From the NCBI GenBank assembly GCA_963682135.1, contig OY821645.1, positions 2,880,001 through 2,944,000 of the forward strand: DNA of 64,000 nucleotides. The letters run 5' to 3'. The notes under the pieces were generated by a model. That model was given only the letters and a program-made list of their open reading frames with translations, searched no databases and was not told the origin of the DNA. Below, piece by piece: positions 20,083 to 30,416 of this stretch; position 1 is the first letter of the stretch, and each line of letters opens with the position of its first letter. A program made the position numbers and the translations under genes. The DNA comes from Methanothrix sp. (GTDB taxonomy: Archaea; Halobacteriota; Methanosarcinia; Methanotrichales; Methanotrichaceae).

Positions 20083-20150
20083 CTGTGCAAGTCCCCTGGG
20101 AGAGGCTCGTCCGGCAGTGGCTCCGGGCAAAGCTCACTGCCAGGCAATCA
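20083..20150 (-). pseudogene. Highly decayed fragment of the Fe-S gene (most distal copy)
   Basis: GGCTCGTCCGGCAGTGGCTCCGGGCAAAG resembles GGCTCACCCGGCAGCGGAGCCAGGGCGAAG near 24830; translates as PLPDEPLPGDLH versus [13 protein letters not shown]. Confidence 0.5.
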
Positions 20151-20216
20151 GGCCTTCCGGAAGAACGAGAGGATGCCCGCAGGCGTGGGCAGGCGGGCCC
20201 GGAGGCGTCTAAGGTT

Positions 20217-20489
20217 TCAGTGCTTCTCCTTAAGCTTTATCTCAATCTCAAGCTCATCTTCCTCGTATTCTACTTCAAGCTTGATGGGGGATCGGGGATT
20301 GACAGAGAGAGACACGTTGCCATAGGCCACTTCAACCGTACCTCCGGTTTCAATCTCCGAAGCCAGATCTCTGAGAAATGCGGCTACTTCTGAATTGGTC
20401 AAAGAGAATTTTTGTTTGAACTCCTCAATTCCTGTGCCAGAGCAGAATTTCAGGGAAATTTTTCCTGTCTCACCTAATATTTTAGCCAT
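20217..20489 (-). CDS. Amphi-Trp-like domain protein
   Basis: FKQKFSLTNSEVAAFLRDLASEIETG...LEVEYEEDELEIEIKL. Confidence 0.75.
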   Translation of the reverse strand: MAKILGETGKISLKFCSGTGIEEFKQKFSLTNSEVAAFLRDLASEIETGGTVEVAYGNVSLSVNPRSPIKLEVEYEEDELEIEIKLKEKH

Positions 20490-20608
20490 GCTAATCGCGG
20501 AATATGTTTGAGCTTAGTACATAATGAGTTTTGGCCCATGATCATTTTATCTTGGTGGCATGCGTACCGCAATTAGGTTTAAGAACAATACCATCTGATC
20601 TATTGCCA

Positions 20609-20854
20609 ATGGATGAATTAGCGCAGCGGGCGGATATGCAGCTAAACGTAATTGAAAATGCATACTCGATCAGGATTCAAAATAAAGAGGAAATTGTCAG
20701 CCTCCTTTCTAAAAGGCTTCAGGATAAAAGGCAGATCTTACTGGTTTGCACATCTATTAGCTCCTGGATTGCAGGCAGCAACATCAGAGGAGATACAGTC
20801 GTTCCCATCAATATTGTTATGCATTTAATTGAAGCCGCATCTCATTCATCTTAA
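20609..20854 (+). CDS. Hypothetical protein
   Basis: Protein-like ORF from ATG (MDELAQRADM...); start uncertain. Confidence 0.5.
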   Translation: MDELAQRADMQLNVIENAYSIRIQNKEEIVSLLSKRLQDKRQILLVCTSISSWIAGSNIRGDTVVPINIVMHLIEAASHSS

Positions 20855-21028
20855 CAGCATTTGCAGAATGAGTGCTTGGGCAGCCCAAAGGCCGGTAGCG
20901 GGAGATATCGCCCGCTTTCAGCCTCGGCTCAGGATCGACGGGGTGCAGATCATTCCGGCAGGAGGGCTCGCCGGGCAGAGGTGCCAGGACATCTTCCTTT
21001 TGCAGGTCGTATTCCTTGGCGATCTCTT
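20851..21028 (-). pseudogene. Chimeric remnant: Fe-S gene fragment fused to a DUF433 fragment
   Basis: 20851-20990 matches 28861-29000 (GGGCAGCCCAAAGGCCGGTAGCGG); 20983-21028 matches 25360-25405 at 43/46 nt. Confidence 0.9.
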
Positions 21029-21168
21029 GATAATGTTAATATAATTTTGATAATCACTCCGTTAACCGAGCTTTGTGATTAATTAATATATGCACACAAA
21101 AATTTTTAAATTGGCAAAATTTAAATTCAAAGAAGTTCTAATAGAATTAGAGGCATAAAGGAGGAAAT

Positions 21169-21384
21169 ATGACAAATGAGACTTTAGAGAAGGCAAAGAC
21201 TGAGATCGAGAAGAAGCTCTCTTATGCAAAGGCCGATGCAGAGAAAGGATTTGCCGATGTAAAGGCTGAAGTGGAGAAGGCGAAAGCTGAGGTAGGCAAG
21301 AGGATGGCCCATGCAAAAGCTGATGTGGATAAGGCGAGAGCTGATGCAAAAGCTGAAGAAAGAACTAAGCAATCGCAAAAATGA
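21169..21384 (+). CDS. Small Ala/Lys/Glu-rich helical-repeat protein (LEA-like)
   Basis: Strong RBS AAAGGAGG; repeats EKAKTE, YAKADAEK, EKAKAE, HAKADVDK. Confidence 0.8.
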   Translation: MTNETLEKAKTEIEKKLSYAKADAEKGFADVKAEVEKAKAEVGKRMAHAKADVDKARADAKAEERTKQSQK

Positions 21385-28577: not shown

Positions 28578-28597
28578 CTAAAGAACTCACGTTCCTT

Positions 28598-29035
28598 CTA
28601 CCACACCTTCAGATCGATCCCCTCGATCCTCACCATCGCCCCTTCTGAGTGCACCACAACTCCCGAGTGCACCTTTTGCATCATGGAGTAGCTCCGGCAG
28701 AAATCGCACTGTCTCCCCCACCTCCGGCCTCCTGCCCCGGCTCACCGTCCCATCGAAGGCGGCCTACCCGTGCAGATGCCGATGTCCCCCTGGCGCTGGC
28801 AGGCCATGCAGCAGATGCACCGGCCCCACCAGGTGCACGGTGACGATTCCCCTGTCATTCTTGAGCACTTTTGCAAAATGAGTGATTGGGCAGCCCAAAG
28901 GCCGGTAGCGGAAGACATCGTCCTCCTTGTGGCGCGCCTCTGGATTAAAAGGATGCAGATCTTCCCGGCAGGATGGCTCGCCGGGCAGCTGTGCCAGGGC
29001 AAAGTCGGCCCGCAGGCCGTCCAGCACACCGATGA
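28598..29035 (-). pseudogene. 3' two-thirds of the Fe-S gene, frameshifted copy (proximal)
   Basis: Colinear with 29790-30223; same GGAGTAGCTCC lesion plus further indels; ends at CCGATGA. Confidence 0.93.
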
Positions 29036-29163
29036 AATCCCAATCAGAAAAGGACCATTCTTGCCAAATTTATCCACTACCGCCAAGCTGAGCAGAAGAG
29101 AATCCGGTCATGAAACCGAATCAAAAGATAACTGTTAAATCCCATCGAGTAGTAGAATAAGTC

Positions 29164-29415
29164 ATGTTCTCGGAATATATCGCGGCGGCTTTGAGGCGGG
29201 CGAAGTACGAATCCCTGGAGAATGGCTCTTACATGGCCACTGTGGAAGGTCTTCGTGGCGTGATAGCCACCGGTGAGACTATTGAAAAATGCCGGGAAGA
29301 TCTAATCGAAGTTATTGAGGAATGGATTGCCATTCGGTTGCAGAGAGGCTTTGCCATTCCGTCCCTTGAGGGTCATGCAATAAGCGTCTCCCAGGAGCCG
29401 ATGGCCATTGTGTAG
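29164..29415 (+). CDS. hicB: HicB-family antitoxin
   Basis: YMATVEGLRGVIATGETIEKCREDLIEVIEEWI. Confidence 0.88.
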   Translation: MFSEYIAAALRRAKYESLENGSYMATVEGLRGVIATGETIEKCREDLIEVIEEWIAIRLQRGFAIPSLEGHAISVSQEPMAIV

Positions 29416-29629
29416 AATAATTCCCGTTCCTTATCGCGTCCTAATCAAGAAGCTGAAGAAGCTGGGATTAGAGGGACCACACCATGGCAGCAAGCACCCT
29501 TACATGGTCATTGGCGACACAGTTATCATCCTACCAAATCCGCATCAAGGCGAGGACGTAGATGTAAGTCTCATTAAGACCATTTTAAGAGATGCCGGTA
29601 TCTCCCGCGAGGAATGGATTTCAGCATAA
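29408..29629 (+). CDS. hicA: HicA-family toxin
   Basis: LIKKLKKLG, GSKHPYM, LPNPH, LIKTILRDAGISREEW. Confidence 0.88.
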   Translation: MCRIIPVPYRVLIKKLKKLGLEGPHHGSKHPYMVIGDTVIILPNPHQGEDVDVSLIKTILRDAGISREEWISA

Positions 29630-29789
29630 CATGCTCGCCTCGCTCAAGGAGGGGGCCCGGGAGGGGATTATACTGGGCTTTGGCGCGGTTTCTCGTGGCT
29701 CCTGATCATTCTGGAATACAAGTAAAAGACTTATGGTCGCATGCGGGGCGAGCCTAAAAGCAGTGAAGCTGATTGCTTTGAAATTACTC

Positions 29790-30416
29790 TTACCAAACCT
29801 TCAGATCTATCCCCTCGATCCTCACCATCGCCCCTTCTGAGTGCACCACCACTCCGGAGTGCACCTTTTGCATCATGCAGTGCTCCGGCAAAAAGCGCAC
29901 CGTCTCGCCCACCTCCGGCCTCCTGCCCCTGCTGACAGTCCCTTCGAAGGCTGCCACCAGGCAGATGCCGATGTCCTCGGGCGCTGGCAGGCCATGCAGC
30001 AGGTGCACCGGCCCCACCAGGTGCACGGTAATGATCCCCTGTTTGTTCTTGAGCACTTTGGCAAAATGAGTGATTGGACAGCCCAAAGGCCGGTAGCGGA
30101 AGATCTCCCCCTCTTTAGGCCGCGCCTCAGGATTGAAGGGATGCAGGTCCTCCCGGCAGGATGGCTCGCCACCCAGCGGGGCAAGCGCGAAATCAGCCCG
30201 CAAGCCGTCCAGAACGCCGATGATTTCCTCCGTCTTCTCTGAGCAGACAAAGAGCTTGGCGATCTCCTCAGCACGCCCTTTGAATCTCTCCTGCTTGAGC
30301 ACGGGGCAGCGCTCCAGCCCGGCCACGTCCACCAGCTTGGCGGCAAACTCCCGGCAACTGGAAAGGCCGCACTCCCCGCAGTTGTATCCCGGCAAGAGCT
30401 TCTCGATCTGCTGCAT
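29790..30416 (-). CDS. Fe-S cluster domain protein (intact)
   Basis: N-terminal LPGYNCGECGLSSC...CP FeS domain; [23 protein letters not shown]. Confidence 0.92.
   Translation of the reverse strand: MQQIEKLLPGYNCGECGLSSCREFAAKLVDVAGLERCPVLKQERFKGRAEEIAKLFVCSEKTEEIIGVLDGLRADFALAPLGGEPSCREDLHPFNPEARPKEGEIFRYRPLGCPITHFAKVLKNKQGIITVHLVGPVHLLHGLPAPEDIGICLVAAFEGTVSRGRRPEVGETVRFLPEHCMMQKVHSGVVVHSEGAMVRIEGIDLKVW

Follow-up and report, generated by a model that had tools for sequence, protein, structure and literature searches.

An array of toxin-antitoxin and HEAT-repeat modules between displaced copies of an Fe-S domain gene in Methanothrix

We analysed a 64,000-nucleotide (nt) stretch of the genome of Methanothrix sp. 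(the window; unprefixed coordinates are positions within it and L-numbers denote related loci), in which an intact gene encoding a protein with an iron-sulfur (Fe-S) domain is followed by an array of small gene modules separated by partial copies of the same gene. Downstream of the intact gene, three extra copies named B, A and C, every one on the same (minus) strand, were found by repeat search, alignment and a DNA profile (nhmmer) built from 47 intact alleles (Table 1). The cargo between them comprises hicBA genes of the toxin-antitoxin (TA) type, two long HEAT-repeat genes, a DUF433-DUF5615 gene pair and the remains of an MNT gene. A preliminary description of this DNA had proposed such an array of TA and repeat-protein modules between 3' copies of one gene, all in one orientation; Pfam and profile searches confirmed the intact gene, copies A, B and C, their common orientation and the cargo. 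An intact target accompanied by three displaced same-strand fragments is the arrangement by which integration islands are recognised.

Copies A and B are pseudogenes, 435-nt copies of the gene's 3' part, and open at the identical base, gene nt 194 (TCATCGG), behind unrelated flanks: copy B is separated from the hicB upstream region by 37 unique nt, and copy A is preceded by the end of the DUF5615 gene. The preliminary description was right that the two long copies of the window break at one point. Both copies are 86.9% identical to the intact gene and 88.4% identical to each other, with insertions at nt 377 and 535 in copy A and at nt 437, 460 (2 nt) and 535 in copy B. Copy C is eroded at both ends and has the longest branch among the window copies in the tree. 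A CCTGGC..CTG microhomology marks the point on its 5' side where it is fused to the terminal ~50 nt of a DUF433 gene; the DUF433-FeS chimera seen earlier is genuine, and this join is the signature of a deletion within an earlier unit in which DUF433-DUF5615 was followed by the gene tail. The earlier view that the distal copies are the most decayed stands for C, clearly the most eroded, and fails for A and B, which are about equally decayed (two and three frameshifting indels, respectively). A further Fe-S trace claimed at 20083-20150 (minus strand) gave no nhmmer match at E values up to 10 with filters off; this segment falls in the 5' end of a pentapeptide-repeat open reading frame (ORF) and aligns poorly to the Fe-S gene. 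Two of the junctions recur in other genomes. The 3' junction of copy C with the next ORF (20531-20854) is common to L001, and the junction of copy A with DUF5615 is common to L008, where window positions 24755-25605 align unbroken to L008 15761-16612. Junction A is common to the window and L008 by descent, while junction B is unique.

Species-representative genomes of Methanotrichaceae and neighbouring Methanosarcinales were scanned with a 12-member family alignment, which yielded 79 related loci. The Fe-S gene stands beside the same operon, with collinear upstream genes, at all 79, and the DNA past its stop codon is not collinear among them: the modules of the window recur in different combinations and orders, each keeping one orientation relative to the Fe-S gene. 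Behind the intact gene, L001 carries HEAT, MNT, hicB, a gene piece and a hypothetical gene; L003 carries hicBA, a full second gene copy, a HEAT remnant and MNT-HepT; L008 carries HEAT, MNT, hicBA and a near-full second copy, and further on DUF433-DUF5615, a gene piece (nt 194-329) and, after other genes, amphi-Trp. The order is HEAT, MNT and hicAB in L009, and DUF433, MNT-HepT and hicBA in L010; in L016, hicBA and a gene piece occur further downstream, followed after other genes by amphi-Trp and a pentapeptide gene. Extra pieces of the gene were present downstream at 14 of the 79 loci, at 11 of the 42 whose downstream DNA extends over 3 kb or more and at 10 of the 22 closer relatives with this length, so that the variable cargo and recurring fragments predicted for other genomes were indeed found. 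Twenty-two of the 79 related contigs stop within 1 kb past the Fe-S gene, as is expected where repeats and strain differences break assemblies. One contig of 3332 nt (L040) has 24 identical bases at both of its ends, inside the Fe-S gene, which implies that its unit (GTPase, Fe-S gene, DUF433, further genes and PIN_2), with the whole GTPase gene included, is a circle or a tandem repeat; these contig ends are the sole hint of excision to a circle.

The comparison of occupied and empty sites reveals a displaced native neighbour. In L001, L008 and L009 the HEAT gene and the intact Fe-S gene converge, their stop codons ~20 nt apart, and single alignments span the HEAT gene, the junction and the 3' part of the Fe-S gene. 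In the window, this junction of gene stop and HEAT stop is found at the truncated copies A and B instead, and hicBA adjoins the intact gene; in L003 the HEAT remnant is found behind the second gene copy, not the first. Hence old 3' ends were displaced outward, as the preliminary description had suggested, and the DNA between the intact gene and each truncated copy probably arrived later, inside or after the gene. The mutual identity of A, B and the intact copy (87-88%) is comparable to that of alleles of separate species, and the differences are mainly synonymous, with a ratio of nonsynonymous to synonymous substitution (dN/dS) of 0.06-0.13 at a dS of 0.42-0.69. For reference, dN/dS is 0.05 between the window gene and its L001 orthologue and 0.96 between the decaying pieces L007_f and L016_f. 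The orthologue-like ratio indicates that the copies diverged as working alleles. The C-terminal 431 amino acids (aa) of HEAT-A and HEAT-B are 71.7% identical (~70% at the nt level), and the HEAT genes of L001, L008 and L009 are 70.7-75.2% identical to HEAT-A and 68.2-75.1% to HEAT-B, in a star-like tree. HEAT-A and HEAT-B are thus no closer to each other than to orthologues, which together with the divergence of the gene copies indicates that the units are not recent in-place duplicates; their divergence probably built up while the genes were under selection. Near-identical units with both junctions in common, as expected of a recent segmental duplication, were not found, the tails being 88% identical and the flanks different. 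The array is old (dS 0.4-0.7 between copies) and not autonomous now.

Fragments and intact alleles were also compared in a phylogeny, as proposed in the preliminary description. In a tree built from 65 sequences, intact genes and pieces together, the pieces are not monophyletic: well-supported branches force at least ten changes, and most pieces are placed beside the intact gene of the same genome or clade (L031, L034, L024/L029, L051, L075, L006, L007/L016). Pieces scattered with their own lineages and at least ten separate origins mean that the process recurred across the family. The copies also have indels in common. At nt 535, A and B have one extra base together with a substitution beside it, GAGCTACTCC replacing GAGCACTGC; this +1 insertion is also present in L003_2, L008_2, L016_f and L007_f, five genomes altogether. 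A further 2-nt insertion at nt 460 is common to B, L016_f and L007_f, and an additional +1 at nt 556 to L003_2 and L008_2, in which both units of a short direct repeat gained the same T (GCACT to GCTACT, nt 535 and 556). Most copies bearing the nt-535 insertion adjoin hicBA. Over nt 194-534, the six copies with this insertion formed one clade in 0 of 200 bootstrap trees, with at least three changes forced, and a single clade was not rejected by the approximately unbiased (AU) test (p 0.099). The dN/dS of these six copies is low; we read this pattern as probable mosaicism through recombination or gene conversion between copies and working alleles. A and B were sisters in one tree (support of 90 in the SH-like approximate likelihood-ratio test, SH-aLRT). 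A single old paralogue lineage for all extra copies, considered as another source of the pieces, was rejected family-wide by the number of origins. The most conserved part of the gene is its last 93-127 nt, where identity is 90-94% among copies and 81-96% among the alleles compared. A loose cluster of breaks lies near nt 525-540: L024_f and L029_f both stop at nt 540, L075_f begins at nt 539, and two database proteins diverge from the family sequence past residue ~174-176; this may be a preferred crossover site.

In several related loci, a Xer-like tyrosine recombinase gene (PF00589) lies on the strand of the intact gene, ~100 nt past its stop codon. The integrase of L015 has 295 aa and that of L049 is 73% identical to it at the aa level; the gene is frameshifted in L036, where a DUF5906 primase-like gene occurs further on, and cut by the contig end in L018. 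N-terminal integrase remnants persist in L030, L011 and L012, and in L031 and L034 the conserved gene-integrase spacer alone lies behind the intact gene. Integrase, remnant or spacer is thereby present at 9 of the 79 loci; in addition, a recombinase of lower similarity (38%) is found one gene further along in L045. XerA was the best model for the L015-type enzyme (164 bits, cut-off 220), which scored 86 bits against the integron-integrase model (cut-off 265). Similarity among the integrase loci begins right past the stop codon, which places the left junction at or inside the gene end. In L031 and L034 the spacer is accompanied by a displaced gene tail (nt 453-626 and nt 391-573) 3.2 and 5.2 kb downstream, enclosing a P-type ATPase gene and other genes; these two loci come closest to complete inserts that lack an integrase. 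Attachment (att)-type direct repeats were sought by comparing the gene, extended by 110 nt, with the DNA further downstream in L015, L018, L030, L036, L045 and L049, and only chance 9-12-mers emerged. Windowed identity in the integrase loci gave no clear switch to an element-borne 3' part, the last 127 nt being too conserved to tell. None of the 14 loci with fragments has an integrase gene. The earlier statement that no integrase is present holds for the window, where Pfam detected no integrase or transposase family in 65 ORFs (57 out of 64 non-overlapping ORFs with a length of 90 aa or more, and a further 8 of the array that were short or overlapped), tblastn with the relatives' integrase found no match (best E 3.3) and the conserved spacer is absent. 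It does not hold as a property of the locus, since a recombinase next to the target, remnants and spacers included, is found in some relatives.

Among the cargo modules of the window, hicBA sits within a ~670-bp module (~29080-29746) that recurs, in differing contexts, in L001 (partial), L003, L008, L009, L010 and L016. The DUF433-DUF5615 module, a putative TA pair, is also found in L006, L008, L010, L026, L030, L040, L051 and L075. Judged by family matches, both hicBA and DUF433-DUF5615 would qualify as type II TA systems. MNT is a broken gene: the in-frame stop confirms the pseudogene noticed earlier, aa 3-136 of the L003 MNT protein align to window positions 22113-21715, and a search for its partner with HepT gave no match, while intact MNT-HepT pairs occur in L003, L006, L010 and L024. 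HEAT-B combines twelve 108-nt (36-aa) HEAT repeats with a ~430-aa C-terminal region without known family. PADLOC matched the array proteins at the level of HEAT repeats only (68.8 and 27.1 bits, in repeat stretches), which does not point to a defence role. The label LEA-like, given earlier to a small ORF rich in K, A and E, could not be upheld, because this ORF matches no Pfam family above the cut-off; it has no counterpart among the related loci. The conserved hypothetical gene next to copy C is 87-90% identical at the nt level to a gene in L001, where it stands beside the gene fragment of that locus. The distal flank, with the amphi-Trp and pentapeptide-repeat genes, is common to L016 and partly to L008.

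Table 1. Features of the array and of the adjoining operon, from the operon outward (positions in the window; scores are given with model cut-offs).
Feature	Position	Strand	Details
Cysteate synthase	31902-33152	-	NCBIfam TIGR03844, 561 bits (cut-off 325)
ABC-type ATPase	31120-31905	-	Pfam
CobW/HypB-like GTPase	30425-31123	-	Pfam
Intact Fe-S domain gene	29790-30416	-	208 aa; ORF call
hicA	29408-29629	+	HicA_toxin, 32.1 bits (cut-off 27)
hicB	29164-29415	+	UPF0150, 89.6 bits (cut-off 27.3)
Copy B	28593-29040	-	gene nt 194-626; profile E 3e-129
HEAT-B	25767-28577	+	936 aa; convergent with copy B
DUF433	25296-25523	-	Pfam, 78.2 bits (cut-off 23.6)
DUF5615 (PIN-like)	24941-25333	-	Pfam, 69.6 bits (cut-off 23.8)
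Copy A	24450-24895	-	gene nt 194-626; profile E 2.5e-136
HEAT-A	22214-24409	+	731 aa; convergent with copy A
MNT (nucleotidyltransferase antitoxin) pseudogene	21715-22131	-	truncated Polbeta domain; in-frame stop
Small K/A/E-rich repeat ORF	21169-21384	+	71 aa; ORF only
Copy C with DUF433 remnant	20845-21028	-	gene nt ~240-370; profile 20845-21005, E 3e-30
Conserved hypothetical	20531-20854	+	107 aa; adjoins copy C; no Pfam match
amphi-Trp domain gene	20217-20489	-	PF20068, TIGR04354
Pentapeptide-repeat gene	18267-20147		distal flank with amphi-Trp gene

The anchor gene is the last of an operon that encodes cysteate synthase, an ABC-type ATPase, a CobW/HypB-like GTPase and the Fe-S protein. 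The Pfam match to PF04060 ('putative Fe-S cluster') is confined to the N-terminus of the 208-aa anchor protein, for which 709 homologues were found, the best 92% identical and with names of Methanothrix or Methanotrichaceae. The G+C content is 0.42-0.52 over ~16-29 kb and 0.55-0.62 in the operon. A tRNA-Gly(CCC) gene (16469-16541, minus strand) lies at the distal edge of the low-GC stretch; partial copies of it, which would link it to the island, were not found in the window, and it was the sole match of an Rfam scan of 15000-35000. Two paralogous, secreted-looking proteins without family match flank the operon plus island in opposite orientations (16653-17177, minus strand, 174 aa; 33846-34466, plus strand, 206 aa), and in nine relatives the 174-aa type adjoins the 206-aa type upstream of the operon. 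Other genes stand directly behind the anchor in some relatives: a DDE transposase and two DUF1670 genes (L005, 11537-14804), an ISL3 transposase (L035, 10704-11921), a TnpB-like protein (L013, 13360-13929) and a type III-like methylase/helicase pair (L021, 11268-16761). The main gene itself was split by tblastn in two loci, into two overlapping segments in L051 (9992-10616), which suggests a frameshift in the main copy, and into two segments in L075 (9998-10670), caused by a long linker insertion.

The array is real and best seen as a known kind of structure with an unusual anchor, displaced pieces of unusual length and variability, and tiny TA units that lack an integrase. We favour, with a probability of roughly 0.55, a gene-anchored islet that arose by serial integration, likely of elements with a Xer-like integrase, and was then reshaped by recombination between the copies. 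The DNA behind and into the 3' part of the Fe-S gene would be an insertion hot spot in Methanothrix. Incoming DNA with its own copy of the 3' part would recombine with the resident gene and restore an intact gene, each insertion would push the old 3' end and everything downstream of it outward, and repeated events would stack units consisting of cargo, that is TA pairs (hicBA, DUF433-DUF5615, MNT-HepT) and HEAT-repeat genes, and a displaced gene tail. The original driver would most likely be a family of integrative elements whose Xer-like tyrosine integrase inserts at the gene end and which might have lost the integrase in the lineage of the window; later reshaping might have involved homologous recombination or gene conversion between the gene copies and deletions such as the join in copy C. 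We infer this order of events, the integrase origin of the window's units and the role of homologous recombination from the copies and their limits, the displaced native junction, the variable cargo, the integrases of the relatives, the indels and the substitution patterns.

Several observations weigh against this interpretation. Fragment starts are scattered across the genomes (nt 1, ~175, 194, 226, 250, 258, 289, 391, 420, 453, 490 and 539) and there is no single crossover point; the same breakpoint does not recur from genome to genome, as had been expected. The full-length second copies in L003 and L008 and the 3.3-kb unit of L040 with its GTPase gene do not fit a fixed site within the gene. 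The insertions common to A, B and the copies of four other genomes mean that the copies cannot be taken as separate remains of 3' ends that once functioned. Furthermore, Pfam, tblastn and spacer searches found neither integrase nor remnant nor spacer in the window, and the five loci with a recombinase gene (L015, L018, L036, L045 and L049) have no displaced gene piece in the 0.5-10 kb of downstream DNA covered. Finally, the L015 and L049 integrases have diverged about as much as the neighbouring host genes (65-82%), which gives no sign of recent mobility.

The variable extent of the duplicated stretch, between 88 nt and the entire gene or even this gene together with that of the GTPase, would agree with accretion driven by homology without a dedicated recombinase, a possible account to which we give clearly less weight than to serial integration. 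Here the conserved gene, chiefly its last 90-130 nt, would serve as a portable homology arm: circular or linear DNA of related strains containing part of the gene would enter by single-crossover (Campbell-type) or homology-facilitated illegitimate recombination, and unequal crossing-over between copies would then duplicate, delete and permute the units. The conservation of the last 93-127 nt suits such a route, as do the mosaic bodies of the copies relative to their common indels and the resemblance of L003 and L008 to circular permutations of one module set. Accessible parts of two reports point the same way: integrase-less TA islets of bacteria were proposed to spread via flanking core genes (PMC13617665), and an archaeal integrase was reported to recombine identical segments as short as 104 bp (PMC8371274). 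But two unrelated flanks in the window join the gene at exactly nt 194, and an integrase or its conserved spacer occupies the site in 9 of the 79 loci. Moreover, copies that are 12-13% diverged would be poor substrates for homologous recombination. A related and more speculative idea, which we hold to be doubtful, is that the Fe-S gene, as a conserved gene of the housekeeping type, acts as the shared 'address label' of a recombinase-free cassette exchange, in which TA and repeat units tied to gene tails would be swapped between Methanothrix genomes through recombination inside these tails, with preferred junctions at nt 194 and ~535-540.

Units A and B are alike, each with a gene tail, HEAT and a DUF433 before the next tail, the DUF433 of A being the remnant on copy C, and they lie ~4145 nt apart. 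This likeness, the nt-535 insertion in both, the nested indels linking copies in five genomes, the sister position of A and B and the failure of the AU test to reject six-copy monophyly would all agree with a purely local history, in which a segment of 'gene tail + HEAT + TA genes' was duplicated in tandem once or a few times, long ago, in an ancestor of this Methanothrix clade, without horizontal input, with divergence, gene conversion and erosion thereafter. We regard it as unlikely, as the dN/dS values of the copies are unlike those of decaying duplicates, the six copies never formed one clade in the bootstrap trees and force at least three changes, HEAT-A and HEAT-B are no closer than orthologues in other genomes, fragments arose separately in many lineages and module order differs between close relatives. 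More improbable still is a capture platform of the integron kind, with a resident Xer-like integrase that inserted integrase-less cassettes inside the gene and has since been lost in the window. It would explain why integrase and the 100-nt conserved spacer occupy the same position in distant Methanotrichaceae with host-gene-like divergence, why the inserts are very small and free of mobility genes (the hicBA unit has ~0.75 kb) and why A and B break identically; yet fragments were found in none of the five loci with an integrase gene, within the DNA covered, and an integrase gene in none of the 14 loci with fragments, attC-like repeats are missing, the cargo lies on both strands and the enzyme scores as XerA-like, far below the integron-integrase cut-off. 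As to an assembly artefact, strain variants of one locus joined in tandem, the contig ends near the gene and the closure of L040 on itself inside the gene are what it would predict, but junction A is reproduced in the independent assembly L008, multi-copy arrays occur in 14 independent assemblies and the copies differ from one another by 12-13%, carry indels of their own and have different flanks; we give it the least credence of all. Serial integration with later reshaping thus remains our preferred reading.

Elements at the ends of protein-coding genes are represented in bacteria by prophage e14 and phage 21 in icd of E. coli and by ICESt1/ICESt3 together with integrase-less cis-mobilizable elements (CIMEs) at the 3' end of fda in Streptococcus thermophilus. 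Like these, the Methanothrix locus has a diverged replacement gene end and an old 3' end left as a pseudogene at the far end, and CIMEs likewise are integrase-less, att-flanked derivatives that can accrete with complete elements. Unlike the Methanothrix units, the icd and fda elements have a defined core, a known integrase and one displaced copy of fixed length per event. The preliminary comparison with integrons did not survive. Small cargo units beside a fixed anchor and, in some relatives, a tyrosine recombinase at that anchor are features in common, but none of the hallmarks of an integron (IntI-type integrase, attC sites, single cassette orientation) was found: the search for attC-like repeats gave 7 inverted pairs, 71-81% complementary and 0.5-7.5 kb apart, none at unit borders, the repeated unit is a gene fragment, and in the window hicBA and the HEAT genes are on the plus strand and DUF433-DUF5615, MNT and amphi-Trp on the minus strand. 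The locus also differs from Rhs/CdiA/MafB orphan arrays in that the repeated part is conserved (87-88% nt identity, dN/dS 0.06-0.13) and matches no toxin family.

Closer parallels are provided by islands at tRNA genes, which, in the accessible parts of the sources, are defined by a regenerated target with displaced fragments (PMC4383910) and in Prochlorococcus (tycheposons) are extended by serial integration that pushes older elements deeper into the island, leaving partial targets and fragmented integrases (bioRxiv 10.1101/2020.12.28.424599). With tycheposon and Islander-type islands, as far as these texts go, the locus has in common the regenerated target, directly oriented displaced partial copies, older inserts lying outward, integrase-less degenerate remnants and accessory cargo. 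It differs in its protein-coding anchor, in pieces of up to 435 nt in the window or the whole gene in relatives, in variable starts and in the lack of an integrase in the window. In archaea, elements of Thaumarchaeota were described to integrate into the 3'-distal part of protein-coding genes and to re-use sites in tandem (PMC6563490), and tandem integration, integrase loss and module exchange by homologous recombination were reported for archaeal elements (PMC8371274). The accessible portions of both reports thus match the locus in the conserved-gene 3' end, tandem re-use, integrase loss and module exchange, while the att sites given there are tens of bp long, whereas here the searches defined no core and the window inserts are tiny and mostly TA genes. 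Bacterial TA islets without mobility genes between core genes, for which spread by homologous recombination was proposed, resemble the array as small, partly eroded TA clusters, and unit boundaries formed by duplicated parts of the flanking gene do not feature in the accessible part of that paper (PMC13617665). A literature search, which was not exhaustive, returned nothing relevant on this locus or on Methanothrix islands.

Methanothrix is a major acetate-using methane producer, and we found little on the uptake of accessory genes in its genomes. The locus provides a concrete, recurrent entry point for TA and accessory genes, with a protein-coding anchor and a candidate integrase family in relatives. 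If identical breakpoints and a common frameshift mark a defined joining mechanism, it would offer a tractable case of archaeal gene-anchored cassette exchange. There is also a practical warning, as contigs of metagenome-assembled genomes often break at the locus and gene callers annotate displaced copies as Fe-S proteins (e.g. the 198-aa P0090). Second copies annotated as proteins of 181-198 aa with altered C-termini were noted in L003 (8096-8689) and L008 (13916-14368) and as P0090, P0093 and P0104.

Elsewhere in the window, a defence-type cluster is located at 50041-58669 (plus strand). Its genes encode the methyltransferase and specificity subunits of type I, a nuclease (YhcG/PDC-S02), a TIR protein resembling ThsB, a membrane protein of the 8xMP kind and a pair of an ATPase and a DUF4276 protein (PADLOC HEC-01 A/B); a type I restriction subunit for this cluster was not found among the window ORFs scanned. 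Moreover, a lone gene for a FitA-like ribbon-helix-helix antitoxin lies at 40849-41202 (plus strand). In L003 (12910-13559), a member of this FitA-like family has a PIN gene as its partner, and TPR and DUF6125 genes resembling those at 41668-44360 of the window come next.

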